Virus record (IMG/VR): IMGVR_UViG_3300028734_000003
Span: 159-64,158 of that record
Strand: one strand, 5' to 3'
Origin: a virus
Lineage: Duplodnaviria > Caudoviricetes
DNA length: 64,000 nt
This document shows, piece by piece, positions 1,226-56,195 of this stretch; within the stretch, counting starts at the first letter, position 1; every line of letters begins with the position of its first letter. The notes below the pieces were generated by a model. The model worked only from the letters and a program-made list of their open reading frames with translations, was not told where the DNA came from and ran no database searches. The position numbers were made by a program, and so were the translations under genes.

Positions 1226-3982
1226 ATGACAAGAGGCTGAGTTAGTTACGATAAATTTCTCAAAAAAATAAGAGAGAGTGACGACACAGCCGTTATAGAA
1301 TTTACTAATCTTTGAACAACATATTGAGAATATATTTGACAAATAGCTCTGGTACCTGGATATTGAATATATTCATGGAACGGGGCTATTTGGGAATCGG
1401 AAGGATGAGTAGCAGATCACTCAGCACTGAGTAATCTTGATTTTGAACACGCTGGACATATTGGGTTCGCTAGTGAAGCTATGCTGGCAGACTATGAAAA
1501 GTTAGCAATTTCAACAACGCAAGATAACCTCTATACAAACCTAATACCTAATAACCTACTCATACCAGATAGAACCTATTTGGTAAGTTTATGAAATACC
1601 TGAGAACATTATTATATACAAGCTATCACAACAAATACATACAAAAGTATAAGATGAGCATCAAATCTAGTAGCTTATGAGCAAACACAATTTGATTTGA
1701 ATTACGACAACGAAGCGGGTATTCAATGGAATCGTTTTGATAACCGAGAAAAACAACAGGTTGTCATTTGAACCACAACAAATGAAAATCAACGAGGTAT
1801 TGCAAACGCAACAAAAGTGACTTTGCATTCTTCTGCGTATGATATGTTCAAACGAATTTCAACAACACCTTGACAGGAATATACATTTTCAATTCGAGCA
1901 AAATTCGACACAGTGACAAATCTTGCGATCACAATTATGAAAAACTATTTGAACTGGAACAATTGCGTATATTATACAGAAACAAACAAAGACTGACGAC
2001 AGAAATGTTCGGTTAGATTCGTTGCAGAATCAACATCAACTGTTGTATTTATTGGTTGAATGAACAATGTTTGATGATGAGTACAACAAACGGCAGGTGA
2101 CTGTTATCTTTGTTGTTTCAAATGTGAGGCTTCTGAAAAAACAGATGAGATGAACTTCTTGCCTGTCTTTGATTTGCTTAGGTGAGTTGGTAGAGATTAC
2201 AGAGCAACAGCAGGTTGGGTAAATAATGGTTGAACGATATCAGTAGGATATCCAGATGTTGTCTGAATCAAAAGAGCTTCTGCAATCACATTTGCATCAG
2301 AAGCACAAGCACAAATGGGACATTATTACAATATCACAAATAGAGTTCCAACACTTGAAGTAGGTAAGAATTACATATACGGAATTCGATTAAATAAAGT
2401 TTTTGCTTGAAATATAGTGATCACGCTTGCAGATAACAACTGACGGTTTGAATATCCACAGCTTGTCGATAACAATCTTTGATGACGACAATACTATGAA
2501 TTAGAGTTCACATATAAATGAAATTGATTGTTCTTTTATTTTTGAGGTAGTGGAACGATCAGACAAACAGCTTGAACGTTCTATATGTATTGACTTACAC
2601 TTAGACAAGCACCACTTCCACTTGTTTCGTGAGTACAAGAGATTATTGCAGGTGATTGAATAGCTGTTGATAATTCAGACCCGTCTGCTCCAGTAGTTTC
2701 TGCTGTTGGTTGATGAAATTGAGCAGTCCAAAGATTCGAGTATTGACAACTGACTATTGCAAAAATGTCGTGACAAATTATTCCAACAATGTCAGCTCCA
2801 TGAGTAAATGCTTGATATAGCAACAAAGACATCAACATAAATCTGCAAAAATATCTGAAATGTTTTGTTGATATCATTGAATATCAAGATTGATATGAAG
2901 TACAAAGACGAAACAAAATGAGATTTGCAAATCAAGATGACATATTTCTTTTCTGTTCAGAAAATTGTTCAACATTTTATAATGAAAATGATGTTCTTTC
3001 TTATTCAAACACGATCATCGCTTTGTTCTATGATATTATTGATTGAAGTATTCAATGAATCCCGAAAGTCAACGGTTGAAATACTTTCTATCAAATGCTT
3101 AGATGAAAACACAGAGAACTTGCAACCAATGCTTGACTAAGGCACTTACAAATAGTTTGAAATGAAAATCAAAGAATGCCCGAGCCGTTGTATTATCAAT
3201 TCATACAAATGGCTTTCGATAATATGTTCCCAGAGCGATGACTTGTTGCCGAAGAGTGATTGTATGATTGACCAATTGGAAGTTTATTTTGGTTCGGTGC
3301 TTCATACAAAAAGAGATTCAATCTTTTGAAAGCAAACGCAACCATACACCCGATTGAATCATCTTGAAACAGCAGGTCATATCTGAAATATGACTTAACT
3401 GTTCCAGAATATACACGAGCATATTGAGTTTGAGATAGCGAACGAACAATTGACCAATCAAGAACAAAATATATTTGATATGAAATGGGAACTTCTTATT
3501 GATTGGAACTTGCAAATAAAAATGAAGTTTCAATACTTATACAACGAATAAAAGCAGAAAACAAGTCAATTGTTATTTTGTATTGTTTGACAAGACAAGA
3601 CCCAATCAATGCGTCACAAACACAATATGCAATCTATGTGAAGCCTGTGAATATAGATACTTTGTATGTTTCACCTTTTGATGATTCGTTGTATGAATTG
3701 AACGCTGTTTGTGAGTGAGATTTGCAATATCAAAAATTACAAATACCGTATTTCAGTAGCATGACACCGAAAGAATTCGATTCTGTGAGAATACAAAAAT
3801 GAAATCGATATGCTTTGTTATGAAGAAAACAACGGAATCTTAGATGATCAAAAAATCCGTCTGTCAGATTTATGCTTCGCAGATTGAGTGATTGAATGAT
3901 TTGACCAATCACAAAACAAAGAGCAGTCTTTGAGTGACCACGCAGAGATAGACCAATCACGACAAAAATATCATATACATAG
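1226..3982 (+). CDS. Tail fibre / receptor-binding protein with two carbohydrate-binding-module-like domains (~918 aa)
   Basis: One frame with TGA=Gly. Contains DHSALSNLDFEHAGHIGFAS (common in fibre proteins), CBM-like motifs TPGQEYTFSIWAK..GWQKCSVRF and VGKNYIYGIWL..GGWQYYELEF (W=CGA), and an IIAGDGIAVDNSDPSAPVVS linker. Confidence 0.75.
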
Positions 3983-4004
3983 TTCAGATATGTTTGCAGG
4001 TGCG

Positions 4005-4107
4005 CCCAGTTGATGTCGTACTCCATATTTGAGCAACCATATTATTTGCTCACAATACTGGGTTGTCCATTTAATTCAGCCCACATTATCCCCCTAGAAA
4101 TAGGGGG
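4005..4107 (+). ncRNA. Structured intergenic RNA segment (nested hairpin plus GAAA-tetraloop hairpin)
   Basis: CCCAGT(4005-10)/ACTGGG(4057-62) encloses TGAGCAA(4030-36)/TTGCTCA(4046-52). CCCCCTA-GAAA-TAGGGGG at 4090-4107. Confidence 0.45.
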
Positions 4108-4113
4108 TGAAAC

Positions 4114-4156
4114 CAATACAATAGGTAGTATTCGAGTTCGATTCTCGATGTGTTGA
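4114..4156 (+). ncRNA. tRNA-like minihelix (acceptor stem + T-arm, no anticodon arm)
   Basis: CAATACA/TGTGTTG 7-bp stem (one G-U), TCGAG-TTCGATT-CTCGA T-arm, 11-nt linker ATAGGTAGTAT containing GG, discriminator A, no encoded CCA. Confidence 0.55.
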
Positions 4157-4199
4157 TATTCAGTAATAGATGCACAGCTTTAGTTCTTAATCTTATAGG

Positions 4200-4541
4200 A
4201 TGGAGAGAAGAGTAGCTAGGTATATGAGAAATGACCAGAATGAACACAAGTATAATAATCATCATATCTTATGACACTGCAACTCTAATCTCTATAATGT
4301 AGATATTGCTGAGAACCTTATAAGAGTTCTAAAGACCGAACATAATGCCTATAATTGTATTGTGTGAAGTCTACCAGAACAACAAACTCCTAGATGAGTA
4401 TTCAAGATGGCTCATAAATGGACTAATCAAGTCCTAAGTGATTATGCTCTAACACTATTGACTACATTGTGTGAGATGCCAGACAAAGAACTACTTGCTC
4501 CAGAATTTATTAAAAAACATCTTGTAAAACAGGGGGAATAA
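4200..4541 (+). CDS. HNH-like small protein
   Basis: NHHILG...NV....ENLIRV...EHNAYN spacing; open with TGA=Gly. Confidence 0.5.
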
Positions 4542-4578
4542 TGTAATAAGAATATGTTTATATTATAAATTCAAGAGT

Positions 4579-5091
4579 ATGATAACACTCTCAAATATCC
4601 GATACTATATTAAATGACTGTTTGTAAATGTTTTCTGGACTAAATTTATATTATGACCATGCTTAGTGGTTCTTGCTGACTTTGCCGGAGTAGATAATAT
4701 GCTTCATGTACAATACATATTTGTATGATGGATGCTTACAATGGTTATTGGTACTATAGCGGGCAGTATGACTGAGTGATTCTCTTGGAAGAAATTTTGA
4801 CTATGAGCTCTGCGTATGTTCTGATATATTGTTATGTTATTTTTGGGACACGCTTTTGATAAGTGATTCGAAACAGAGTTTGTATTTGACTTCATATATG
4901 CTATAATTGCATTAGACCTAATACATAGCTTTCTCAAACATAGCCCAGTATTGGGAATCACTTTCTCAGTAAAAATACTTAGATTCTTCGAAACTATAGA
5001 AAATAGAGTAAGCGGAATATTCCTAGCCAAGTGAGGATTTGACCAGATAGTAGATGATATTATACCGACAGACACAAAAAAGAAGAAGTAA
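4579..5091 (+). CDS. Holin (phage holin family 4-like)
   Basis: 170 aa with several hydrophobic segments, GFSWKKFGLG followed by a TM segment, SFLKH..LGI motif, and a charged tail. Lies upstream of the endolysin. Confidence 0.65.
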
Positions 5092-5472
5092 TATGTCGGG
5101 TGTCTCATACTAAGCTGGCAAAGGATGGGACAGACTTGCAGAGAGGTGGGATTGCAAGTGATATTTGTTGGTTTATTCTTAAAAAACAATATGGAGATAG
5201 TCTTAGTGCTATTACCGTTATATGCTATTGGTTACATGATTATGTTTTTCAAAGATAGATGAGATATGTTTTATATCAAACATAAGCGTATGCAAAATTT
5301 TTTAAGTAGAAGAGAATATCTCGAAGGAGAAATAAAAAAACTTGAGGAAGAATTGATAAAAGTTGAGTCATCTTCACTCAAAGATAAAGATTCAGTTATA
5401 GAAGACATAAAAAAAGATATAAAGTTTAGAAAAGATGACCTTAAATCGTTTTATAACTAACCAAATTGGCTT

Positions 5473-5745
5473 ATGATAGCTATACTAAAATTTCTAAGAG
5501 ATACTTTTGTTACCTTGTCGTGGATTGGTCAACTCGTTGATGAAAAACTCATTTCTAGCACGACTGCCAGAGTAATTGAAGGAGCAATTTATACGCTTGA
5601 GCTAGGTTTGTTGACATATATTTATAATGGTTTGAATACTGGAATATTTACAGACTTCAATGCAACGTTATGGGTATTATTTGTTTGATTTTCAAAAACA
5701 ATAATTGAGTGTATTGTAAAATCATTTAGAAATAACAAAAAATAA
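5473..5745 (+). CDS. Small membrane protein (second holin/antiholin candidate)
   Basis: 90 aa after TGA read-through; hydrophobic helices and a basic C-terminus; lies in the lysis cassette. Confidence 0.5.
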
Positions 5746-5746
5746 T

Positions 5747-6385
5747 ATGACAGCTGAGGAACAAATCACAGCGATTATGAAAAATAGATTTTTTGAACCA
5801 AAATATTTTCCAAAAAAATTCAAAATAAAATCGAATCTCAATAAAAATGTAAAACTTCACACACAGACAGGACCAAACTGTTGGATGTTTGCTGCATTTA
5901 ATAATGTATCGCTAGATTATGGTATTTATGTAGATGAGGCTAAGGCTCAGAAATTTCTGTGACAGTTCTGAATGAAGCTAGAACAGTGATGATCTACCGC
6001 AGCAAGTTCTATGATGCTCTCTGAATATCTATCTATAAATGGGAAAGATTATGTTGTTTATTCTCTAGACATACTTACACAAATTAAAATATTTGCAGAT
6101 ATGTTAAAAGCTGGACGATGGTTTATTTATTCTAGAGATTGTTCAAAGGAGGTACTACAAGACATAGCCGACAACGATGTGATAGATTTGATTCATAAAT
6201 GAACCACTAGCCCACACGCAGTAAATATTTGATGACAATTTGGCGTTGGTTTACAGGAACTATGAAATTGGGGAGATGAAAATAAATATAATGATTTCAG
6301 ATATAAAGATCCTCAGCTATTTGTCAAACTTGTAAAATCATGAATGATAGAGAGAACCGTATTATTTATTTCCGAAAGACAATAA
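5747..6385 (+). CDS. Papain-like cysteine peptidase
   Basis: QTGPNCWMFA (oxyanion Gln, catalytic Cys), PHAV (His) and GNWG motifs in one TGA=Gly frame. Confidence 0.7.
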
Positions 6386-6387
6386 AA

Positions 6388-6843
6388 ATGGATATATTAA
6401 ATAGTATTGAATTATTGGTTGTACCATTCAAATGAAAAATTAAATCACTGATGGCTGTTGTAAAGGGCAAATACCCAAATCTTGCCGCATTTGAAACTAT
6501 GCGTACAAAAAATAGACAAAAGCGGCTTGTAGATAATGATAAGTCATGGACTATGAATTCTCAACATCTTGTTGGGAAGGCGGTTGACTTTGTATTTCTA
6601 AATAAGAAAGGACAACCAACATGGACAGGAGATTACAAATATCTACACTATGTTGGATACATGTGCTGAGTTACACCAATCATTGTGAAAGGGAAGTTAC
6701 TAGAGCAATGTCATCTCCAGGATACGAATATTTCTATCCAGGATCAAATAGCAATAAACAGCGATCGCTGGCATAAAGCTACGGAACAATGGGAAAAAAA
6801 TCTTCTACACATGGTAAACAATGAATTGAGAAAATACATATAG
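6388..6843 (+). CDS. Endolysin, peptidase M15 (L-Ala-D-Glu endopeptidase type)
   Basis: ETMRT..RQ..L....SWTMNSQHLVGKAVDF and a downstream EQCHLQ zinc-ligand motif. Confidence 0.85.
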
Positions 6844-9800: not shown

Positions 9801-10770
9801 ACCATAATTATTGTTTTTTTGCTATCTCATCTATCAATCATATCTAGTATTTCTTGTAGTGTAGAATAACATCTAAAACAGGACTCGTGCATATTATTAC
9901 CACAAACATTTATAGTTTTGGTTGTAGTTGGATATGTTTTAATTAGTTCTAATCATACTGGTGGTGTATTACTAGTTGTTTCCATCTATAAGGTTGTTAG
10001 ATAGTAAATAAATTAGCATTAGTCATAATCTTTCTACATCCAGAGATAAACAAATCTGTCAAAGATTTCATTCTTTACCTCCACTTTCTATGTATGATTT
10101 CCATATCAATGCTTCTCTTCGTGAATTTTCTCAGATTTCTGCTTTCTCTTTTACCCATTCTTTTAGATACTCCATAAGTTCACTTGCTGTATAGGCAGGA
10201 TATGATTTATCTCACTCTTCTTTACATTTTCTCCATACTTCATATATTTCTACACATTCTTTTAGTGTCATCATCTCACAAAATTCAATCCATTCCCAAT
10301 GACTATCCTTACAAAATCATAAGTCAGATAGCTTCTTTGAAATTTCTAAATTGGTTACCTGTTTAGCTAATTCCATCTGTGGATATGTTAGTTAGTAAAA
10401 TATATAGATAAATAAATCAGAATTATTCAAGGTAAGATTGTATATGTAGTTCAGTTATTTACGGATGGATATATTGTTCATCATATAATAATACCCAACC
10501 CAAACCAAATAAGCGCTACTCATATCATAGATTTATTTTTCTTCTTCATTGTTGCACAAAAACATAATAATAGAATAATAATATAAAAGTATTTTTGAGT
10601 CTAAACTCCTAGTATACTCTATTTACTCAGTGCGTATCTACCACAAAACTTTCGTCTAATGGTAGTATCATGAAGCGCATAAATAACAATAGCGATAATA
10701 TTCATAATCAGATCATAACCACTTCTGGCCAATCCATCTGATTTTTAATCATTCGTTCTGGTTTTCGCAT
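6900..10770 (-). other. Block of small hypothetical genes (some with CxxC motifs, some membrane proteins)
   Basis: Closely packed short ORFs in the recoded code, each with an AT-rich leader. No function recognised. Confidence 0.55.
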
Positions 10771-11663
10771 TATTTATTGTTAGGAAATAAAACTTCTGAT
10801 ATGAGTACATAATCTCAAGCAGGCCATTTTATTTTTTCAATAGCCTCTAATCATTGCATTCATATTCACATCCATAGATCTAGATGTTTTCACTTAATGG
10901 CTCATCATCTATCTCTACAAGTCACCCATCAATATCATTCAATCTTAAACTTAGTATATGATGGGAACTGTTCTCAACAAGCTACCATAAGTCCTGCTTC
11001 TTCGTTTGTTAGTATTCATCAGAACGCCGGAAACAAACATCAGCTATTTCATATATTAGATGCTCAACAATTCATTGTGACATCTGCTTCATATGATTTT
11101 CATTTATAGTATCTCTCTTGTCACTTTATTGGAGAATAGTATCTTGTTATTTCATAATAGCCAGTTATGCCATTTGATTTTTTTATTGTCGTAGGTTTAT
11201 TTTTGTCCACGATGATACCTGCCTTTAGAGGGTCAAAATATTTCCCTGGGCATGTTGATCACCATGATCGGTGTGGTTTTATTTTAGCATCTGGGAATTG
11301 TGTTCTTAAAACCTGGAGCAATATGTTCAGTGCTTCGTATGCTTCTTGCGTTGGCTTCTCCTTATTAAAGTTTCAAACCAAGGCGACACCTATACTTGTG
11401 CTGTTGTTCTTTTTGTTGTGGAATCAAATATTGTTTATACATCTAGTCTGCACAACTGTTCAGTCGCTAAATACTAGATAGTGATATGCAACATCTGTAT
11501 CCTTACAAGATTCTGGTTGTCATGGAAATCTTTTTGAATGTCACCTAGAGATATTATCAACTACTTTCTGATAATCCACTCAATCATTTTCCGTATTATG
11601 GATTGTAATTTCCGTGATGTTTCTAGTAAAAGCAGTTTTACCTGTTACTGTAGCAGGTTTTGA
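10770..11663 (-). CDS. N-acetylmuramoyl-L-alanine amidase (Amidase_2/PGRP-like) + 3D domain; no start codon of its own, -1 frame of the upstream ORF
   Basis: Amidase motifs ITIHNT, VAYHYLVFSDG, GFH..NNSTSIGVALVGNF, IKPH....STCPG, then 3D motifs ITRYYSP, VAC...FP..TKFKIEGYG..TCRDRGGAIKGKHLDLWMG. Confidence 0.85.
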
Positions 11664-12106
11664 AAAAACAATTTTCAGCTAGCTGTCATTCCATCATCTT
11701 TTACAGCTTCTTCTGTATTGATTTGTAAGAACTCTGGCTTTTCGACTCTTGATATTCCCTCATCAGCCAATTTAAGTGTATCGTCTGTAAGGTTCAAAAG
11801 GTCATTACTGACCATACCTGTTTGCTGTTTGTTTTGGATAGCTACATATTCGATAGTATCTTTATATGAAAGACTATCCAATACGTCTTGTTTGATTTCC
11901 CAAAGAACTTCTTTGTCGGCCATATATAATGACTTTCTATCGTATCCACTATCCACATAGAATGAATGGATTCTGTTTACGGTTTGTATTGGCGATTCTA
12001 CTGGTTTCGATTTGTTCACTGCGTATACTCAATAGCTGAGTCCTCATAAGACTACAACCATAATAGCTACTCTAAATATTGTTGTTATAAGTTTTTTGAG
12101 TTTCAT
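11645..12106 (-). CDS. Membrane-anchored stalk protein; N-terminal partner of the frameshifted hydrolase
   Basis: MKLKKLITTIFRVAIMVVVLGGLSYGVYAV signal anchor, 153 aa. Ends AAA TTG TTT TTT CAA AAC CTG CTA CAG TAA. Confidence 0.8.
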
Positions 12107-12660: not shown

Positions 12661-12900
12661 TTAGAATGGAAGTGACGGATCATCTTCCTGGGTCAATGTT
12701 CTTGGGGCTGGCTGTTCATCTGCCATCTCTATATCGAATATTAAATAGTCTGGATGCCTTCTCTCCATTTTATAATTATTTTTTCTGATCTTTAACTTGT
12801 AATTTACTCAATCGATATTCATCAATCAGGTGAATCATTCGAGTCACAGATTGCCAACCTTTCACCACAGCGCTCAAGTATTTGTTGTATCTTTTTGCAT
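12661..12900 (-). CDS. Small SSB-like protein (DUF736-like) with an acidic ...LPF tail
   Basis: GALW.K...GFTG.MNIDG...NNYK...HPDY core and an EDDPSLPF terminus. Confidence 0.6.
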
Positions 12901-12977: not shown

Positions 12978-13286
12978 TTAAAATGGCAAATCTCAGCTAG
13001 CTTCTGCTGGCTTATCATTCTTTACTTTTCGACAAATAATTGAGTTGAAGAATTTACCTGGTTCTTTCTTTGATTCGTTTGTTTTGAAGTTGATATATGC
13101 TGTGATCACATCTCCCACAACAAATTGCTTGATAAGGTCTCTCTTGTCGTTATTGAAGTCAACAACGAGACTAGCTGGATATTCCTTATCTGAAACCTCT
13201 TCTAGTCTTACCACTTGCTTAGAGAATTTTTCTCCGAACTTTTCTTCGTAACCGATATGCGTAACTACTCCTTTAAATTCTGACAT
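12978..13286 (-). CDS. OB-fold ssDNA-binding protein (DUF3127-like)
   Basis: FKGVVTHIG..E.FGEKFSKQ..YP....DF..DK..L...F.VGD.I....N; TGA read-through gives the terminus SGDLPF*. Confidence 0.75.
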
Positions 13287-27242: not shown

Positions 27243-28079
27243 CTATCCATTCTTAATTTGTTTACCAATTAAAACAAATTGACTTGCTTTTTCTGCCCTA
27301 CCAATTGCTTGGAATAATTCTGTCTGGCGTCCTTCTTTTTGGATTGCCTTTGCTCGCCCTGCTATATATTGAGCGTGGTTATTGAGCTCGAAAGTTTGTC
27401 CTGCCTCTTGCATAAGAAAGCAAGCCCCAAATTCTGCTGTCAATTCCTCCTTGGAATAGTCTTCTCTGTTGTGTTGTCCTTGTAGACTTCTCTTGAGTCT
27501 GTTGTCTGCTCCTGTACTATGAATCATTTGGTGAAAGAAAGAAGCGTAGTAGTCTTGAGCGTCCTTGAAATCGTGTAATTTTGGCATTGTAATATAGTCA
27601 TCTCCTACATAATATGCTGGGTCTCCATACTTTTCTAAAATTTCCTCCCTTGCTAGGTATTCAATAATAACCATTTCTGCGTCATAAATTTCCTCGTGGT
27701 TATAGGTGCTTTCGTCTTTGAATTCCGCTCCCTCTTGTTGATCGAGATTGAATACTGTATACAATTTTACCATAGGAATTCTCTTTGTATCGTCTAGCTT
27801 GTCAGTGAAAAACTGTCGAAAATATACGGTCGTCCCTTTTTCTCCTTTCTTTACTTGTCCCCCTGCTTCTGCTATTTGTTTGTATGTTGCCCGTCTGTTT
27901 TCTTTGTAGCTTTCCTGGTTCATTTTGTAGGATAGAATAATTTTATTCATACCGTGGTATTTTCTCCCGTCCTTTGCATTTCTTGCCCCTCTAGTATTCC
28001 AAAGTTGCTGTCGTTTTCCTGGATTTTCCATAGCTTCTAGCACAGATTCTGTGAGCTTTTCGATGATTTCCTTTTTCAT
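27243..28079 (-). CDS. ardC: ArdC-like antirestriction protein (ssDNA-binding domain + zincin-like domain)
   Basis: N...G.KYHGMN, WATYKQ, GGQVKKGEKG, YTVFNLDQ, D.I.MP, HQMIHSTG...RL.R, YSKEELTAE, YIAGW (Trp codons are CGA/CGG). Confidence 0.85.
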   Translation of the reverse strand: MKKEIIEKLTESVLEAMENPGKRQQLWNTRGARNAKDGRKYHGMNKIILSYKMNQESYKENRRATYKQIAEAGGQVKKGEKGTTVYFRQFFTDKLDDTKRIPMVKLYTVFNLDQQEGAEFKDESTYNHEEIYDAEMVIIEYLAREEILEKYGDPAYYVGDDYITMPKLHDFKDAQDYYASFFHQMIHSTGADNRLKRSLQGQHNREDYSKEELTAEFGACFLMQEAGQTFELNNHAQYIAGRAKAIQKEGRQTELFQAIGRAEKASQFVLIGKQIKNG

Positions 28080-35196: not shown

Positions 35197-36759
35197 ATGT
35201 CAAAAACTGTATTACTATGAGATGACGCTCGTAAAAAATTATTTGAAGGAATGAAAATAGTTTCTACTGCCGTTATGTCTTCTATGGGTCCTTGCGGAAG
35301 GAATGCCGTCCTTGGAAGATTCGATAGATCCCCTGTTGTCACAAATGATGGGGTTACAATCGCCAGAGAGATAAGTTTGCAAGATCCTGTAGAAAATATT
35401 TGAGCATCCATAATTAAGGAAGCCGCAGAGAAGACAAATAAGGAGGTAGGTGACTGAACTACTACCACCACTTGTCTTACCTACGCAATTGCAAAACATG
35501 GCCTATCGGAACTGCAAAACGGAACAAATCCGTTCGTATTAAGCAAAAATCTACATGAAATTGGGGATAGTATCGTTGAAAATATAAGAAAATACACAAA
35601 AACAATTAAACATACATCCCCAGAGGTAAAAGATATTGCCACCATATCTGCACAGGACGAAGAAATTTGAGAAACTATAGCAAAATGTATCAAAGAAATA
35701 TGACCAGATGGACAAATTTCTGTTGAGATTTCAAAGGAAATAGGTATCAAAGAGGAATTGAAAAAATGATACGTCATTGATGCTGGTTTGGTATCACCAA
35801 TATTTATGCTCGATGAAGAAAATCTTCAATCAGACCTAAGTGATGTAACAATATTGGTTGGTAAATGAGAGCTATCCGATGCATGAGGGGTGTTAATTTG
35901 AGTATTAGAGGAAATGCATTATGAGGGTAGAAAAAATTTACTAATTATGGCAGATGAGGTATCGTGAGGTGCTCTAGATGCTATAATAAAAAATAATAAA
36001 AGCTGAATGTTTAATATAATTGTAACATGATTACCATCTACATGACAAAACTCTGAAGATATCTTAGAGGATGTTTATACTGTGTGTTGTTGGTGAGAAA
36101 CAATTTTAGAAAGAGGATTCTCTGGCCAGATATGACGTGCAGGAAGGGTAGTATCTTGAAAAGATTCAACAGTTATTGTGGATTGATATTGAGAAGATGA
36201 TTGAATAAATGAACGCATATCTATGTTAAAAAAGAAAAACTTAAAAGAAAAAAATGAGTATCGAAGAGAAAAGGTAGAAGAGAGAATCTCAAGACTTTCT
36301 TCTGGTGTTGCTATTATTTATGTTGGATGCCAAACAGAAATGGAGGCAGTCAATAAAAAATATAAAATCGAAGATGCAATATGTGCTACGAAATCAGCAA
36401 TAAAGAACTGAATTGTTATTGGTGGTGGATTTGCCCTTGTTAGAGCCGCAACAGAGGTACCTGTTCCAGATTGATTTGGTGTTGCATGGAGAATACTTAT
36501 AAACGCAATAAAAGAGCCAGCAAAAACCATAATATATAATGCGTGACGAGATGCAGAAAAGATTATACATCCGTGAGATATAAAATCAGAATTAGTTTTC
36601 AATTCCAAAACATGAGTATACACACCATGGGATGAATATAAAATAATTGATCCGGCAAAGGTTGTTGAGTGCGCTGTCCAGAACGCAATATCAGCTGCTT
36701 GTATGTTTCTCACTACTGACGTTGTTGTATTTGAAACAGAAGATATAATAAGTCAATAG
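35197..36759 (+). CDS. groEL: Chaperonin GroEL (divergent, no GGM tail)
   Basis: [52 protein letters not shown]...[32 protein letters not shown]. Confidence 0.95.
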
Positions 36760-46670: not shown

Positions 46671-49600
46671 ATGTGATTGATTGATTTCGTAAAATGAGCT
46701 TGGGATGAAGCAAAAAATGTAGTGTCCGATATCAAAGACTTTCTCGAAGTACCTATTAGAGAAGTCCAAAATTCATGAATCACATTACCTATAGGGGACT
46801 GAATACAAATAATGAAAGGGAATGAACAATGAGTATCTGATGTAATCAATACTCAAAATATTCCTGTTGCCCAGGTGAACACAGATACAATCAAAAATAT
46901 GCAAAACATCTTTTCCGATAACAAAGTAACGGCGCAAGAAAAACAATATATTTCTACTCTCCCCGAGGCATATCAAAATATATTCAAAGCATCAAAAACA
47001 CTGGACCAGTTAAAAAGCTATGTTTATAACCCAGAATTTCTAAAGGCTGATCCAGCTGCTGCAACAAAAATGAAGGAAGATTATAATTCTAACCTGCAAA
47101 ATCTTAATTACAACCTAAAGAGAATTGAGGAATTAGATCCTGGACACGCACAAAACCAAGAATTAGATAAACAATATTTCCAAACTGAATTTCAAAAAGC
47201 CACTCCCAAGATGAAAGATCTTGAGGATATTTTTGGTAAAAATACAGATGTGGCAAACGCCTACAATAAAACTGTATACAACTCTATCTCGGATGTGAGC
47301 GATTTAATAACCCAAGCTAGAGATAATAAATTACAAGATGATCCTTATTTTGTTTCAAAAATAGAATCTCTTAAAAAAATGAAGGACCAGCTTCAAAATG
47401 TCATGTATTTGAAAACTAAAAATAACGCTAGCCAGATAAAAGACTGGAATGACGCATTTGATTTGATATCTAATGACGATTCTGCAAAAATGTTGGCACA
47501 AAACATTACAGATACCGAAGAAGATATTAGACAAGATCTTATGAAAAAATCTGTAGCCAAAACATATGAAGAAAATAAGCCTATCCTTGGTACATATAAA
47601 TGAGCAGAATACTTGTTGAGTTTCGTTACTAGGGGTTTGGATGAAGTTATACAACAAGTTGCCCCAGTTAAAGCGACAGACCTATCGGACCTGGAATATC
47701 TCTCACAAAATAACGGTGTAATTAAAAATGCTATTGGTAAAACAGCAAATCGAGCAATCAGAAACGGTTGAGAGCTAGCTCAGTTGTTTGTTCCTGTAGA
47801 ATGATTAGTAAAATGAGCACAGATTGGAATAAAAGGTGTCATGGATATTGGTAAGGCTGTAAAATTTGTTGATGCTGCTGCTGATGCTAGCAAGGTTATC
47901 AACTCATTAAACAATATGGATAAGGCATTTAACCTGGTAAAAGGTACTGTTGGTATTGATTCCATGTTCGATTATAATCTATCTGCTGGAATGTCAGATG
48001 CAAATACATCTACAAATATTCTTTTCAATGTAATTTGAGAAGGACTCCCATTGATAAAATGAGCAATAAAAGACTACAAAGAAGCTGGTATTACAAAACT
48101 AAAGGCAGCCGAATTTGACCAGGCATATAAAAATGCGTCATTCGATGTTGCTATTGATGGAGCTGATGCTTCAAAAACAGTCAAAGTAAATATGTTTGAT
48201 CTTTTGGGTGCTAAGTGAGATAGTGTAAATGACATCATTAGGGCGGCTGGAGACTGAGCAAAAATAGATACAGAAACATTTAGAGTATCCTTGAATAATG
48301 CTTTAGATAAATTTACCACTGGTTTAGTTGCTTGAGAAAAAGCTGTAGAGCCAGAAGCTAGAGCATTTATTAGAAGTGTCTTTGAGGGTGTTGCTAATAC
48401 TCTCACAGATATGGGAGAAAGAACTAAATTACTTAATGGTATAGAGGGAAGAATAGCCACTAGAGATGGTCTTATTAGCGCATTATATGAATCTAAAAAA
48501 GTATTCAACGATGTTGCTAAATCAGAGGCAGGAATACTCACAGATATGGTCAAATACTCACAAGGCTCATTTAACGAATTAGGATTTGTCCCTGTAGAGA
48601 ATATGGAAAAATTAGTAAATCATAAGCAAAATTTTGTGAAGGCTGTTGCTGATCACTTCACTGGTAAAAATATATCAGAAGGAACAAGAACCGTGGTTGA
48701 TAAGATACTTTCAAATGTAAATGAAACTGGGAAAGTTTCTGACTCTCATATTATGGGGCTTATAAGGGCTTTCAATGAATGATTTGCCGGCTGAACAGCT
48801 GAAGAATATATGAAAAAATTACAAGAGTTTTCTCAAAACACTCTTAATTATGTACCAGAGGGGTTGAAATCTATAGAGTCTATCAAAAAGATAGGCGCTC
48901 TTGCTGAAACAAAATTTCTCGATAATATAAAAGCTGCAAAAATAAATGTAAAATTTGAAAAACTTGGTACTGGTATAGGTTGAACATTTAAGGATGGATC
49001 GGCTATAATTTCTTTATATAAGGGATTCTATAAAAATCCAGACGATTTTGTTATTGGATTTGTTCATGAGCTTACCCACGGTCTCATCAACAAAGAATCC
49101 AAATTATACACAGAGATGGCAGTTAAATATTCCGAGGGTGTAGCAGAATTGAACACAAAATTCGCTTCTCTATACGATTGATTTGATATCAAAAATTTGG
49201 ATGTTAAAAAACTCCAGGAGAAATGATTTTCTCAAGACGAAATTGACTATCTAAAAACCTATGGATATAGATTCAAAAATACTGATGAATTTATTGCATA
49301 TAATGTTTCTGAATCTCTAGTTGGTAAAGCTCCTAGTGAGGCTTTTGAAATATTGAAAACTAAAGTTAAGGCTGTTGCCGATGTCGCTTTTGATTGAAAG
49401 GTTACAGATGATATGTTTAAGGTAGCTGGAGATAAACTCATGAATGGTAGATTCAAGGCGTCAAGCGCAAAGCCGTCCGTTGCTAGGGATATTGATAACT
49501 ATATCTATTCTGAATCTGGTAGAAGATTATTTTCTTCAGATATAAACGACATTGCTAAGGCAAATGAAAATATTGGTAGCATAGCATCTTTTCAAAAGTT

Positions 49601-52600
49601 GATAAACGATACTGACGCTGAGACATTGGCTGCTAATATGAAAAATAAAGACGTACAAATTTATAAAATGCTTGTTGAAGCGTCTAAATCAGATGATCCA
49701 TTGGTAGAAGAATTTATTAAACAAAGTGCTCTCAATGGTATGATTTCTGGGAACAGATGATATGAGGCAATGGTATCTTGAGGACTATTTGAAGTATTTG
49801 GTGATTTCCAAACCTATGTGAAATTATCAGACTCTCTAGAAAGTCCAGAAAAAATGATTGAGTATTTTGAAAAAGGGCAGGGGCAAATATCAAGTATCGT
49901 AAATAAAATTGATTTCATGTTAAATAACATCCCATACAAAGGAGACAAGCAAATTAAGATACAAAAGACACTTACAGACTTAAGAGCTATGTCTCAATAT
50001 TATGCATATGTTGATGTTATTGCTAAGATCGGGAATAGAGAAGGATTCGATGGAATCAAGCGTTTTGTTATGTCTAAAATAGAGGACCTAACTACATTTG
50101 GTGGAGAAAAAATATCAAATGTTTATGGAATGAAAAGGGGTCAGAGAGCTACTGAAGTTCTTTCAAGAGGAATGAGCGATATTGTTAAGGATCTACAATC
50201 AGAAATTGGGACAAAATGAGTGGAACTTCATGACTATTTATTGAGAAGTCTTACAAAAGCAGAAATCCTTAATCCAAAAATAGAATCAATTTGATTTGGT
50301 GTTTGGAAAGAGGTTGTGAATGCTCTAGGATTCAAGGTAGTCAATAAAGCTACCGTCCCTCAAGATGTATTTAATATGCTTGCTGACGCAAACTATATAA
50401 AATCAGAAGAATCCGCTGGTACACTTTATGGGCTTTGAAAACTATTTGGATTCGATGATACAAAACTAAAAGGGAATTATTCTGCAAGACAATCTGCAAT
50501 TGCAAAAATACTATGATGAGCAGAATTTAAAGACGCTATATCAAGTACAGCAAAATGAGCGGAGCCTAAAGTATCCGATGTATTGAACTTCTTAAATCTA
50601 AAGGATTTTGAGCTTATAGATGCAAACGTTTGAACAATTTTTGATACTATCTACGATAAATTTGACTTCCCTATCGCTGATAAAATAGCTAATAGAGTTT
50701 CAGATATTCTATCAACAGAAAGATCAATTGACAGCGTAGTAAAATGAAGAGAGGTAGCAAAAGAATTGGCACAGAAAAACTATGATAACATAGCAAAAAA
50801 TATTTGATTTTTGGAAAATAGTCTTATGTATCCAATGAAAAAGGATATATGAGAATTGGTTGATCTCGCTAGACAAGACGTATCTTTCTCGCCAGACGGA
50901 ACAATTGGCTCTGTTGTTGCACAAGATGGGCTTACTTATAAGCAAATCTGAGATAAATTTGTAGCAAATGTGAATAATTCACAAGCAATATCTGACCCAG
51001 ATTCATTCAAGTGAGTTGTTTCTTCTAGTCTCGTATACGAAAACGAAGCAAAAAATATTTATGCTTTGGCTGGTACCACTAGATGAGTTGCCGGATCTAA
51101 AAAGGTTGTCGAATTTATGAACTGAGTTATTTGGTCAAATAAACTAAAAACTAGCTGAGTCACAAAACTTTGAGTATCTATGGAAGATCTGGTGAAACTA
51201 GATGAATTTCCTAAAGATTCTCAGGAGCTTGCAGCTTACGCAGAAAAGTATAATGAGCTATACAACGGAGCTATTGCAAATTTTGGAATCAATGATGACG
51301 TTACAAAATACATAGGAATTAAAAAATCAATGATCAACCAATATTCTGCACTTAGAAAAACAACAGATGATGTACAATATTTCAAAGCGTTGTGAGATAT
51401 TTCATCAAGAACGTATGATATGGTCCAAGCCAATATAGATACATTAAATAAATTGGTATGAAATAAAAAATTAAGTGATGCGGAAAAGATTTCAAAGGCA
51501 AATGAAATGATTTCAAAAATTCGCAACAACTTTACGAAATGAATTGAATGAAAGGACGTTAAAAAAATCATAAAAGACAAAAATAATTACATCATACCAT
51601 GAAGTAATCAACCACGATGATTTGCACCTCTCAGCGTAAATTCTGTCGCAGCCATAAGAACATTCTCCAAGGCTTTGGAGTCTTCTGCTAGAGATATGTC
51701 TATGGAAGTTCTCTCAAATAACGTGAAATATAGTGCAAGGCTCTCAGAGGGTAATCGTATGTTGACTGAGCTTAGAAATTTTGCATCAAATTGAATCGCT
51801 AGTAAATCATTTTCATTCGACAATATAGATAATTTATCAAAATATTGAGATAAACCATTTGCATTTAATGTGCAAGAAATGATTTGGAAAAAATTCAATA
51901 CAGCAAAAGAAAATTTCTATAGAATTGAGAAAACTGGAGTCCCTGTTGTATCTGTAAATGCTGTAGAATCTATTAAAGAATCTGTTGCGTCTGTTATTGC
52001 TGGTAGATATTGAGTTGATAAAAGTGTTGTAAAGGATTGAATTTCAGTCGATTATGTGAAACCAACCGTGGCCCAAGTATCCTATATTGATCCAGATTGA
52101 GTATTGAGAAGCCACTATATTGATACAAACCTACCAGAGGAAATTAAAAATTATTACCAATTTGCACTTACTAGAGATGAAATTTTGGAAGGTAAACAAG
52201 TATCGTTTAGAATCGGTGGCGCTGGTGAAGATATGGCATCACACACAGCAACGATCGACGGATCTAAATATAACGGTCTTTTGGACCAACAGTTGTGAGA
52301 TTCTATAGATATGTTGGAATGAGATAAATTACTTCCTGTTTGGGAACAGGCTGCTAAAAAATCTATGTGATCTGAGTATGTAAAATGAATTATGGAAAGT
52401 ACATACGTTCCAAAAATATTCAGTTTCTTAATGGAAAATAAAGCAGTTCTAAGAGAGTCTGCGTACGATACATATAAGATTGTTTCTGAGTATGATAGGG
52501 TTGTTACAAACTTTGCAGATAAGGCTTCGGAACTACTATGACATATTGAGTCAGAGGCACCAGAACTTAAAAAATTTGGTGAAGTATATAATGCAAATAT

Positions 52601-55600
52601 TGAATATGTCAAAGCACTTGTTCTTGGGAAAAGAATTATTCCAAAAGGAATGGTAAAAATAAGATGAGTAGTTACTGACAGTCTTGAGGATATTAAAAAA
52701 GCGTTTGATTCTACCACTTATAAATTAGAGGATTTTGCCTTGGAAAATGGAATCCACGGAAAAGAGATTGATGCTCTAAATAAATCCATAGTATTTGGGA
52801 AAAAGAATATGAGAGATTTTGGGCAATATGCATGAGTAAAATATTTCCTAGATAAGACATACTGAAAGAATGTTCTTACGGAATATAAATGAGTTTCCAC
52901 AGATATGATAGACTCTATGCTAGGTTTCTACGCAGATGAGTTCAAATCTATTTACGACACTATGTGAGCAAAAATAGATAAGGATCAGATTGCTAAAAAA
53001 TTGGAAGAATATCTTATGAATAAAAAGTCTCTAAATATTGCTGGGTTTGATAATGACATCAGAGGTTGATTCACAGTCTTTGAGTCTATTACAGAAGACC
53101 TTAGAAAAGCAAATTGAGGAGAGTGATTAACTACAATATATGACTCAATGTTGAAAGGTTCGCTAGATGCAGAGCAAAGAGACAGAATCTATAAAGATTT
53201 AATGTGAGAGAGTCTCCGAGGTAAAAGTTCTCTTATGAAATTCATCTCAAGAATGAGAGGTGAAACATATGCGCTTCAACTTGGTCGATGGTCTCCAAAA
53301 GCATATATGATTGGGCTTCAGAACGTTGTTTCTAATGCGGTTGAGGTATTCTCAAAAAGAGAGACGTATTCTGGAACAGCAAAAGAAGTTATGCAATTAA
53401 ATGATAGATTATTAAATAGTAAATATTTCAAAGACATTATTGAAAAATGTTATGGTCCAGACGGTAAAACACTTATAGGACTTGATATTGTTCATGCATC
53501 AAAAGGAAAAAATTTGGAAATTGGATGAGTAAGCGCTATCGAAAGATGAATAAATAAAATAGTTGATACTATGGATCATCTTAGAATGCAGGCAGAGAAA
53601 TCATTATGAATCGAAGGTAAGCCAGGAGAAATTATTAAAAAAGTTACTGGTAAAGAGCCATCAAAAGAGTCTGTAAAAGCATTTGCAAACAATCCTATTG
53701 GTATCGCTGATTCGTTCATGCAATGAGATATTACGAATAGTTTCGTTTATAATAAGATATTTGATGAATTGGGCACATCCCCAAAAACATTAAACGGTCT
53801 TATCGACTCTATCGAAGTAATCGACAAGCAACTAGAATGATTGAAGTGATTAGATAGGCAGCTTCTAGAGGCGCAAAAAATAGATATGATAAATACTGTA
53901 AAAAACACAATGCAGTATGCATCTAGAGAGGCATTATTCGAGTATCAACAAATATTCAAAGCTGGGTCTATGGCTGGTCTTATGAGAAATGGATTCTCAA
54001 AACGAACTTGGTTTACTTTCTTCTCAAGTTGGGGAGCAAAGAAATCTGGAGAATATCTCTATAATGCCATGTATAAGCCATTTGCTTCAGCACATTTAGC
54101 ATACAAGCGATGAGGAATGGGGGCTGTTGGTAAAACATTAGCAAACGAATTGCTCACAAATACTCACTGGAATGCTTTAGTAAAACAATCGCTATACGCA
54201 GCTAGGTCAACATTCCAACTAAACAAAGATTCAAATCTAGATACTGTTGGTGAAGATAATTTCGGAGAATGGTTTATGACGGTTTCTCCATTAGGGCAAG
54301 CAATCAAATCTTTCTTCATAACTAGGGCAATAAATGAGTGAGTATCTCAATATGGTGCAGCTAGAGAAGAATGACTTTGAATAGCGGACTCTGTCAAATA
54401 TGGATTGAGTAATGCAATATATCAAGCATCATCTCAGTTATTGAAGGATGTAAAATTCTTTACTGGACCATTAGCACTAGCTCTAAAAGAGTCTAGTACG
54501 AAATGATCTGAATGAGATGTTTTCAATTCAACGGTTGATAAGATAGCAAATAGTTTCATGACAAGTATGTATTATTCTATGTATGATATGTATAAGTGAC
54601 TTCCTTCCGATAGATTGGACGGTGATACAATGTATCCATTCCTTGATGCGGTTATGGGAGACACAGTTACAAAATACAGATACGATATGGACAAAATGAT
54701 GAACGCTGTATATGTAGAAAATAGTATAGACAAATGAGAATTGACAGTTGATTGGTTATGACAACTCTCTAGCTGATTACTATGATTCCCAAAAACATAC
54801 AATAAAAGATTTGCTCTAGACCAAATGGATGCTATCAAGAGAGATGATAAGATTTTCAAAGCAATAGCTGGTGGAGATCTCAAGAGCGTTATCAATGACA
54901 AGCAGTTCCCAATAGAAATGAAATCAACGCTTATGAAATCATTTATGGAACAAAACATGGTTGGTGAATTTGACCAGGGGAATGAAAAGGGAAAGATAGA
55001 TTGAAAGGTGGCTTTGATACTCAATGAATTAAAATCAAATTGAGTAGATACACAAGACCTAGCTGCAATAATCAGTTCTTGAAACCTTAAATCAGCACAA
55101 AAAGAAATGGCTATATTAGCTGCTTCTGGAATGACAAAGGCTGAGTCAACAACTATTCTAGCATTTATGGCCAATAATGCATACAAAGAAATATCAGATA
55201 AATATACAAAAATGAAGGTTCCTCTATCAAAAAATCCACAAATCAAGGAAGATATTTACAGACAGTTATTTGATGTAGTTATGCCAACAGCTACCGAGAT
55301 AGATAAGCAAGTAGCTAGTCAAGTATTGTTCGGATATGTCCAAAGTGCTTATGGTGGAAAAATACCAGGACTAAAACAAGTTGAACTAAATCCAGACGGA
55401 TCAGTTAAGGCTTGAGGTGGTACGGATCCAGATACTATAAAGATGTTCAAACTATGATTATTGGCTGATGTTGCTGATTCTGAAACAGTTGCCTTCAATA
55501 GATGATTGCTTACAAGCGCTGGGCAAAGAGTGTTACAAGATACTCCAGACGAACAAGTAGCTAAGAAAACAGCAGAGATGTTCCAATTTGTAGATGAGCT

Positions 55601-56195
55601 CAAGACGGTATCTGATAATGGAAAAATGGTTGCCAAAGCAGCAATGCTCTACGGAAATCTAGATAGAATGAAGCTCCTATTGAATTCAAATTACGCTCCA
55701 GGAATGCAGGATGAAATGAATAAATTGGCTGATATAATTCGAGACACAAACGAGAAGCTCCAATGTACTCCAGAATTATTGAATGCGCTTACTCATGCAG
55801 GATGAAGCGGAACCGGTAAAAAGGTCCAGAAACCAAAGAGTATAGAGCTACAAAAAGATGTTATAGCTAAGGTAAATGATCTAGCTGACGCAATGCCAAC
55901 TAAATTGAAATCATTCGCTTTGAGCTTGAAATCACAAAGGATAAACGCTACACTCAAGGCACTATCTTTACCAACATTAAAGCCAGAAAAGAATGACACC
56001 TACACAGCTAGCAAACTTACCCCGATTGGATGATGAGACATTAAAACAGCCTCAATCAAAACAGCTGAGTCAAAGTGAGGAAAGTCAACTCCAAAAATCA
56101 AAACTGCAAAGCCAGGAAAAACCTGACCAGTGAGTAATAGTGGGATCAAAAGACCTACCCCAATTAAAATCCAAAGAGTTAAGAAAGCCGAGTAA
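46671..56195 (+). CDS. Giant (~3174 aa) ejection / polyvalent protein with a zincin metallopeptidase motif
   Basis: Twelve track ORFs (46875 to 55506) share one frame and are separated by TGA codons. VHELTH at ~49062-49079 and DEFIAY at ~49284-49301. Confidence 0.75.

Follow-up and report, generated by a model that had tools for sequence, protein, structure and literature searches.

The 64,158 bp genome of the tailed virus IMGVR_UViG_3300028734_000003 (Duplodnaviria; Caudoviricetes) is complete and has direct terminal repeats, and we analyzed 64,000 bp of it (positions 159 to 64,158 of the record; hereafter the window). The minus strand between 10770 and 12106 contains two overlapping open reading frames (ORFs), the first coding for a putatively membrane-anchored helical protein, and the second, in the –1 frame relative to it, for an amidase-3D cell wall hydrolase that lacks an ATG, GTG or TTG start codon in front of its catalytic domain. 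Here we describe the organization of this locus and its relatives, and consider whether the two frames are joined by programmed ribosomal frameshifting. The genome uses translation table 25, in which TGA encodes glycine; there are 24 in-frame TGA codons in the hydrolase frame, and in a codon alignment of homologues TGA swaps with GGN in the glycine columns, which supports the choice of table 25 for the window.

Two overlapping frames and a short U run

The upstream ORF (11645–12106, minus strand) has 153 codons, begins with the ATG at 12106, and ends with AAA TTG TTT TTT CAA AAC CTG CTA CAG TAA, the TAA being at 11647–11645. The structure of its product was predicted with AlphaFold2 on a nine-row alignment, with a mean predicted local distance difference test score (pLDDT) of 76.2. 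The model begins with a hydrophobic helix (residues 2–30; 12017–12103) that is predicted to be a Sec signal-anchor, or possibly a cleavable signal peptide as V-Y-A is situated just before V-N; hydrophobic N-termini are also present in the upstream ORFs of four relatives described below (L002, L003, L007 and L008). The helix is followed by a helical ectodomain (residues 39–120; 11747–11992) with helices at residues 39–52, 58–77, 81–91 and 102–120, which form a confident four-helix bundle (pLDDT of 83–94 in ten-residue blocks over residues 41–120) and are kept across the anchor family. A Foldseek search of the PDB gave no matches to this domain at E ≤ 0.001, and the ORF has no match in Pfam or PHROGs. 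The next segment is a variable linker that is predicted to be disordered (residues 121–146; 11669–11746), in which pLDDT falls to 63 and then below 50, and the tail stays below 50 from residue 136 onwards. The linker varies in length and sequence among homologues, and nucleotide identity in its 30-nucleotide (nt) windows is 0.12–0.32. The proposed shift site lies inside this disordered tail, the place where a linker into a following domain would be expected.

The second frame (10770–11678, minus strand) is open for 302 codons from a CTG at 11678 to a TAA at 10772–10770. It is closed immediately upstream by a TAG (11679–11681), and has eight stops across the anchor ORF. The first ATG, GTG or TTG codon is a GTG at 11579, which is behind a segment encoding an I-H-N-T-E strand with the first zinc-ligand histidine. 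Frame residues 19–146 (11241–11624) match the Amidase_2 family of peptidoglycan recognition protein (PGRP) and T7-lysozyme type (PF01510, E 4.5e-18), with a score of 66.3 bits against a cut-off of 26 and alignment to profile positions 3–131 of 131. Searches against PHROGs match phage amidase and endolysin families (phrog_822 amidase, E 1e-20), and the PDB matches include PGRPs, phage amidases and T7 lysozyme, with a best E of 3.5e-9. His136 and Cys143 are invariant in all ten close homologues and His27 is the same in all five junction sequences compared; we take these three residues to be the zinc ligands by reference to T7 lysozyme rather than by residue-by-residue mapping. A 3D domain is matched at frame residues 242–275 (10854–10955; PF06725, E 3.1e-6) with 27.7 bits against a cut-off of 23.8, covering only positions 14–54 of the 72 in the profile, and it lies within a conserved C-terminal module (approximately residues 175–290) in which the R-Y-Y-S-P, Cys and Asp columns are invariant. 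The hydrolase frame does not itself have a hydrophobic export segment, and only a fusion would carry the anchor helix of residues 2–30.

The two open frames overlap for 34 nt (11645–11678), and this is the sole place where a shift can join them. The overlap contains a run of six T residues (T6; 11663–11668), within which the proposed motif is the in-frame U_UUU at 11666–11663, at Phe147/Phe148; this is of the Z_ZZN type that allows –1 re-pairing of a tRNA. All of these sequence features, including the ORF ends, the TAG, the start-less frame and the T run, as well as the positions of a downstream stem and loop discussed below, had been noted in a preliminary description of the locus, and hold up throughout. 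We note that an in-frame T_TTT occurs 93 times in the 16,903 codons of 49 long window ORFs, so that an 11-codon overlap holds one with P = 0.059, and there are 13 runs of at least six T residues in window ORFs (0.26 per kb), corresponding to a chance of ~0.01 for 34 nt. The presence of a slippery motif in a single genome is thus weak evidence, and it is conservation in relatives that counts.

The T6 run is not an assembly error. The stretch is held by 24 peat-metagenome runs, and we compared the Logan contigs of four of these, none of which is listed with any base difference or indel. Two of the four have contigs that span an unchanged T6 and extend 31 nt or more to either side of it (X10, depth 50.6, and X24, depth 5.6), and the contigs of the other two (X21 and X23) reach the T run with fewer than 31 nt on one side. 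X10 is possibly the source sample, and X24 is not flagged as such. These are contigs and not raw reads, and could hide minor length variants.

Conservation of the junction

Junction DNA was read in five distinct relatives, one from IMG/VR (L002) and four from metagenomes (L003, L004, which equals L007, L005, and L008), giving six junction DNAs with the window; two other loci (L006 and L009) do not include the junction and are outside these counts. In all five relatives, which are 36–60% identical, an ORF precedes the hydrolase and overlaps it such that the hydrolase frame is –1 relative to it, and all six DNAs have an in-frame U_UUU at the aligned phenylalanine codon. The run length differs, with six T residues in the window and L002, five (T5) in L004 and L005, and four (T4) in L003 and L008, and because of this variation the common shift motif can only be the tetramer. 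The heptamer G_TTT_TTT_C favored in the preliminary description is therefore not the conserved unit, but the joint conservation of an anchor ORF, a –1 hydrolase and a slippery site in related phages, which it proposed as a check, is borne out. The upstream ORF is a homologue of the 153-aa anchor in L003, L004/L007, L005 and L008, and wherever its start is on the contig it opens with a hydrophobic segment (the start is cut off in L005).

Both frames are intact at 42–60% protein identity and His27, His136 and Cys143 are kept; the hydrolase is therefore under selection and must be expressed. The pattern of conservation flips at the U run: on its upstream side it is the 0 frame that is conserved, with stops in the –1 frame, and downstream of it the –1 frame enters the amidase domain. 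L002 (IMGVR_UViG_3300021061_000218, positions 3708–4903) is a 54-kb contig with 53% GC that uses table 11, and its Amidase_2-3D protein is 36% identical to that of the window. Its anchor ORF is not homologous to the window stalk (hhalign probability 0.9%), and the overlap contains a canonical T_TTT_TTA heptamer. L002 is the strongest single case for a conserved frameshift layout.

A search for hydrolase homologues returned 19 proteins, ten of them close; the close ones are 179–327 aa and none is fusion-sized. Seven of the nine non-window gene calls among these start at or after the strand with the histidine. Five anchor homologues were found in databases, the window's own included, and all five end with F-Q-x-L-L-Q; the phenylalanine at the slip site is invariant in all nine aligned anchor homologues. 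A profile search of 1.84 billion protein representatives gave 22 matches, of which 21 are 50–162 aa; the remaining match, which we judge to be spurious, is to a repeat protein of 1,106 aa and consists of seven short stretches. C-terminal ends were read for 17 of the 22 matches (16 of them non-repeat), and 13 of the 16 end with F-x-x-L-L-K, one with D-F-L-L-N-L-W-R, and two otherwise. An in-frame fusion of anchor and hydrolase was found neither among the 22 matches nor in a search of longer proteins. The stop shortly after the phenylalanine has thus been kept in a family that has diverged to less than 50% identity; what is kept besides the stop is either the short tail, or the nucleotides and –1-frame residues that the tail overlaps. 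Scans of IMG/VR for close relatives using the single hydrolase and anchor proteins gave no match, nor did a search with a back-translated T-V-V-Q-T-R-C DNA pattern, and the sole match in a scan of genome contigs was a fragment of 26 residues where a contig ends (L009). A DNA pattern built on the conserved junction matched four places in IMG/VR, all in unrelated single ORFs and hence by chance.

Two of the loci have additional features. The L007 cassette is at 4457–6536 (minus strand) of a 359,273-base metagenome contig, which may be from a host that carries a prophage or else from a phage of very large size, and its neighbors resemble an HNH-type endonuclease and a C5 cytosine methyltransferase, as judged by eye only. 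A further locus, L014 (IMGVR_UViG_3300025000_000033, positions 3004–3944), codes for a 162-aa anchor homologue with 45% identity that is followed in the –1 frame by an unrelated 145-aa ORF with its own ATG (3507), and has a G_GGT_TTA heptamer (3432) inside a 40-codon overlap. The 145-aa ORF has no match in Pfam, PHROGs or the PDB; we considered that it might be a glucosaminidase, but the searches gave no support and this was dropped. The anchor may thus be modular and combine with more than one kind of head.

Proposed frameshifting and its alternatives

We conclude that the two frames are probably expressed through a programmed –1 ribosomal frameshift on the U_UUU, giving an exported and tethered amidase-3D protein of ~445 aa beside the 153-aa anchor. 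The main support for this is comparative, which is evidence that the preliminary description did not have when it proposed such a frameshift, and with it frameshifting is the best explanation of the locus. Translation would initiate at the ATG at 12106, with the N-terminal hydrophobic helix directing the chain to the membrane, and most ribosomes would terminate at the TAA at 11645 to give the anchored helical protein of 153 aa. In some ribosomes the tRNA-Phe on the UUU at 11665–11663 would slip to the UUU at 11666–11664 with perfect re-pairing, and these would read on in the hydrolase frame to give a product of ~445 aa (148 + 297); both product sizes are as previously predicted. The fusion would consist, in order, of the membrane helix, the helical domain, a flexible linker, the zinc amidase, which would cut the bond between N-acetylmuramic acid (MurNAc) and L-Ala, and the 3D (MltA-like) domain. 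As a start codon and an export signal are both missing from the hydrolase frame itself, the enzyme would depend on the shift for being switched on as well as for its route across the membrane, and the shift would hold the hydrolase at a low and fixed proportion of the anchor protein.

Several observations weigh against this interpretation. A candidate 3′ element with conserved sequence (11633–11658, minus strand) begins 4 nt past the T run and consists of ACCTG (11658–11654) and CAGGT (11644–11640), which could form a stem, together with CAGT (11650–11647) and ACTG (11636–11633), which could pair to give an H-type pseudoknot as was previously suggested. The pseudoknot is not supported by folding: the 69 nt downstream in the window have a predicted energy of –5.8 kcal/mol (z 0.07, with 99 of 200 shuffles folding as well), z for the relatives ranges from +0.15 to –3.41, and the consensus (alifold) energy is –2.68 kcal/mol. 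Counted over five sequences, 82% of cells are compatible with the pseudoknot pairs and one pair is compensatory, and this is matched by 159–213 of 500 shuffles. A search of Rfam gave no family that reaches its gathering score; the two weaker matches that it did give are to the opposite strand. A Shine-Dalgarno (SD) motif precedes the start in only one of 49 long window ORFs, compared to a background of 7.7%, so translation starts in this phage-host pair are chosen by other means, and a stimulator of SD type is unlikely because the phage does not use such sites. According to PMC4066793, Z_ZZN tetramers in Escherichia coli shift in the order A_AAG >> U_UUC > U_UUU, at 0.26–5.6% with a strong pseudoknot, and are used by the insertion sequences (IS) IS1 and IS3, and tetramers that lack a stimulator give 0.147% against a background of 0.112%. 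In the same work U_UUU attains efficiencies of around a per cent only where a strong pseudoknot is present, and without a stimulator the efficiency expected here is therefore low. This would be fitting for an enzyme directed against the wall of the cell producing it. We also note that all of the comparative counts rest on six junction DNAs, and those using table 25 are related to each other.

The sequence of the candidate element is nonetheless well conserved. The segment at 11650–11621 is the most conserved 30-nt window of the 1,373-column locus alignment (0.77, versus a mean of 0.43), and this peak falls 12–35 nt downstream of the slip site. The columns of identical residues that are nearest to the slip (Phe5, Thr12 and Thr15 of the hydrolase frame) use one codon each in all five sequences, the other threonine columns vary, and the fixed threonine codons in the candidate element are ACA and ACT. 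Part of this conservation arises because the two frames overlap and the first strand of the enzyme is encoded here, and among the points that count against frameshifting is that the excess of synonymous conservation over residues 1–30 (0.61 versus 0.49) is not significant (Mann-Whitney P = 0.13).

The main alternative, although an unlikely one, is that these are two overlapping genes in which the hydrolase starts independently within the overlap, at the CTG at 11678 or the ATT at 11672 (or at ATG or GTG in some relatives). The product would be a cytoplasmic amidase-3D endolysin of 302 aa that has no leader and depends on a holin, which the phage has, for access to the wall, and the U run would be incidental. 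Some relatives do have suitable codons, and these also weigh against frameshifting. In L003 there is an ATG in the hydrolase frame four codons before the phenylalanine, at the codon homologous to CTG 11678; the protein P0008 begins M-I-W-F-S-K, with its methionine three residues before the phenylalanine; in L002 a GTG precedes the U run by eight codons; and P0022, the closest anchor relative (77% identity), probably has an ATG or GTG in its –1 frame at the position of the window CTG, as its protein has Glu-TGA codons where the window has Ser-TGA. As the phage does not use SD sites, their absence is not an argument against an internal start. However, the window, L004/L007 and L008 have no ATG, GTG or TTG ahead of the domain in the hydrolase frame, and in L005 there is only a TTG directly before the histidine codon, so that three of the five relatives have no usable start codon in this frame; in L005 and L008 there is also no CTG or ATN codon before the U run. 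The check proposed earlier, for a start-less hydrolase in related phages, gives a positive outcome for L004/L007, L005 and L008 but not for L003 and L002. A start codon is thus not conserved, whereas the U_UUU is present in all six DNAs, and NTG codons arise easily in the –1 frame of TGA, a frequent glycine codon. CTG and ATT are also very poor start codons, and CTG 11678 sits inside a translated ORF. Independent initiation is real for some relatives, and could coexist with frameshifting; at the CTG of the window, where the preliminary description named it as an outcome that would refute frameshifting, it seems improbable.

A second alternative, which we regard as much less probable still, is transcriptional slippage, in which RNA polymerase would add or drop a U at the T run in a portion of the transcripts, such that conventional translation of the edited mRNA would yield the fusion. 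Homopolymer runs such as the T6 in the window and L002 are the substrate for this (PMC5009743), although the example given there involves long poly(A) runs. The layout is also kept with T4 (L003 and L008) and with T5 (L004 and L005), and there are 13 other runs of at least six T residues in the phage ORFs. Productive transcriptional slippage generally needs runs longer than T4 to T6.

The least credible alternative is that the gene is broken or decaying, or that the assembly has a homopolymer indel, such that an ORF once continuous from anchor to hydrolase has been disrupted and no fusion is made. Homopolymer runs are prone to indels and the database gene call for the hydrolase (P0002) starts at the internal GTG, but the sequence is identical in independent contigs, and all five relatives, the most distant at 36% identity, have the same –1 offset, intact frames on both sides of it and the zinc ligands. 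A single continuous ORF, which would have been the sign of an indel, is absent from the contigs and homologues that we examined, including 21 anchor-family representatives and ten close hydrolase homologues. Two further candidates were rejected: termination and reinitiation at the 0-frame TAA, as no hydrolase-frame start codon is nearby in any of the five sequences using table 25, and read-through of the upstream TAG, as the hydrolase frame has eight stops across the anchor ORF.

Genomic context and relationships to known systems

The hydrolase gene, at 10.8–12.1 kb on the minus strand, lies amid replication and recombination genes, with minus-strand neighbors that include a helicase, a PD-(D/E)XK nuclease, a Sak annealing protein, and DUF927, ArdC and DUF3127 proteins. 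A conventional lysis cassette (4579–6843) ends the plus-strand late genes and has a holin (4579–5091; PF05105, E 8.5e-5) and an M15-like endolysin (6340–6843; phrog_465, E 4.9e-12). It is ~4 kb from the hydrolase gene and on the other strand; the preliminary description had likewise placed the gene on the replication strand and away from the lysis cassette, and because of this separate cassette the amidase-3D protein would be an additional wall enzyme. By analogy with endolysins that are exported by a signal peptide or are of the SAR type (see below), we take the product to be a membrane-tethered wall hydrolase expressed from a replication-strand operon and acting on the host's own wall, which the fusion would either remodel or help to lyse without the need for a holin. 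Immediately downstream is a 53-aa ORF with a single transmembrane (TM) segment (10609–10770, minus strand), whose ATG shares its A with the hydrolase TAA; it has no counterpart downstream of the cassette in L003 or L007, and we regard it only as a neighbor. The possibility of a second lysis cassette around the hydrolase gene was discarded, as this and a further 53-aa TM ORF (10388–10549) have no family match and are not kept downstream in L003 or L007.

L007 has the same gene neighborhood as the window, with small proteins ending D-L-P-F encoded upstream. In the window, small replication-module proteins (12978–13286 and 12661–12900, minus strand) end with D-[LV]-P-F, like the C-terminal tail of single-stranded DNA binding protein (SSB), and one of them is the DUF3127 protein (E 2.6e-8); this ending is common to the window and L007 (3–302 and 1808–2149). 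Elsewhere in the window, a GroEL/Cpn60-type chaperonin gene (35197–36759, plus strand; PF00118, E 1.2e-46) directly follows the large terminase gene, and an ORF at 27243–28079 (minus strand) fuses an ArdC-type N-terminal domain to a zincin metallopeptidase (E 6e-22 and 1.5e-25), with a product that is likely an anti-restriction protein. A single tail-module ORF of 3,174 aa with 91 TGA codons (46671–56195, plus strand) is very long for a 64-kb phage. Between the TM proteins of the lysis cassette and the M15-like endolysin is a 212-aa ORF (5747–6385, plus strand) that overlaps the endolysin ORF by 46 nt and has no Pfam or PHROG match. No tRNA genes were found in the window.

The arrangement has similarities to four known systems or families in addition to the spanins, and departs from each. 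The best-known conserved phage –1 shift is that of the tail assembly chaperones gpG and gpGT, which gives a short and a C-terminally extended product in fixed ratio, and occurs in the tail module between the tail tube and tape-measure genes, usually at heptamers. As with gpG/gpGT, the position of the shift is kept even where the sequences are not homologous, as in L002 and the window, but here an enzyme forms the extension and the gene belongs to the replication strand, and the giant ORF of the tail module (46671–56195) is on the plus strand. The similarity to a spanin pair is one of outline, in that the 0-frame protein resembles an i-spanin (a TM helix plus a helical extracytoplasmic part, ~150 aa) and overlaps a lysis-type frame. 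Rz1 genes have their own start and lie in the +1 frame, whereas the second frame here is a 302-codon enzyme without one, and the anchor ORF has no match to a spanin family in Pfam or PHROGs. Both Amidase_2 and 3D domains are above their Pfam cut-offs and the zinc-ligand positions are conserved, although the nearest solved chains share the amidase core only, and have no counterpart of the anchor, the linker or the frameshift.

The IS1 and IS3 elements are similar in having a minimal tetramer, cognate re-pairing of one tRNA, a short overlap with a start-less –1 ORF, and a catalytic fusion (OrfA/OrfAB), and have defined stem-loop, pseudoknot or SD stimulators (PMC4066793). They differ in that the enzyme is a transposase and not an exported wall hydrolase, that only a candidate element is present here, and that this host reads TGA as glycine and does not use SD sites. 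Endolysins with a Sec signal peptide or of the signal-anchor-release (SAR) type similarly have an N-terminal hydrophobic segment that carries the hydrolase across the membrane or holds it there, such that a large-hole holin is not needed, but they are single ORFs with the signal within the enzyme (PMC6023083), and the SAR type is defined by release from the membrane upon depolarization. At this locus the other frame contains the signal together with a helical domain of 80 residues, most translation would end without the enzyme, and the gene is outside the lysis cassette, with the holin and endolysin on the opposite strand.

The usual phage frameshift cases in the literature are tail chaperones and capsids, and in the literature that we searched, supplementary tables being outside its scope, we found no frameshift described in a phage peptidoglycan hydrolase. 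Within 300,000 characters of its text the recoding review (PMC5009743) does not mention endolysin, amidase or peptidoglycan; the accessible text of a paper on phages of Gracilibacteria and Absconditabacteria (PMC10746230) does not mention frameshift or amidase; and that of the lytic-enzyme review (PMC6023083) does not describe a frameshifted phage wall hydrolase.

It is conceivable, and we suggest it tentatively, that there is a family-wide recoding cassette in phages of bacteria that read TGA as glycine and in at least one phage with the standard code, in which anchor and head are in separate frames joined at U_UUU and dosage is coupled to export. The cassette may be modular, with L002 having a non-homologous anchor and the same head, and L014 a homologous anchor and an unrelated –1 ORF. 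If there is such a cassette, phage frameshifts would gain a functional class in which the secretion of an enzyme is controlled, and not the ratio of structural proteins, and this in a host without SD sites, where a short 3′ sequence might act as a stimulator of a novel type. If frameshifting does occur, it would explain the truncated gene calls in seven of the nine homologues, and such enzymes would be under-annotated in phages of candidate-phyla bacteria. The locus also offers a small natural system in which to study frameshifting that is driven by a tetramer and has no stimulator that is obvious from the sequence. More broadly, the shift would add a recoding event to an already recoded system, and would be a way to couple the dosage and the export of a self-harmful enzyme through one translational event.

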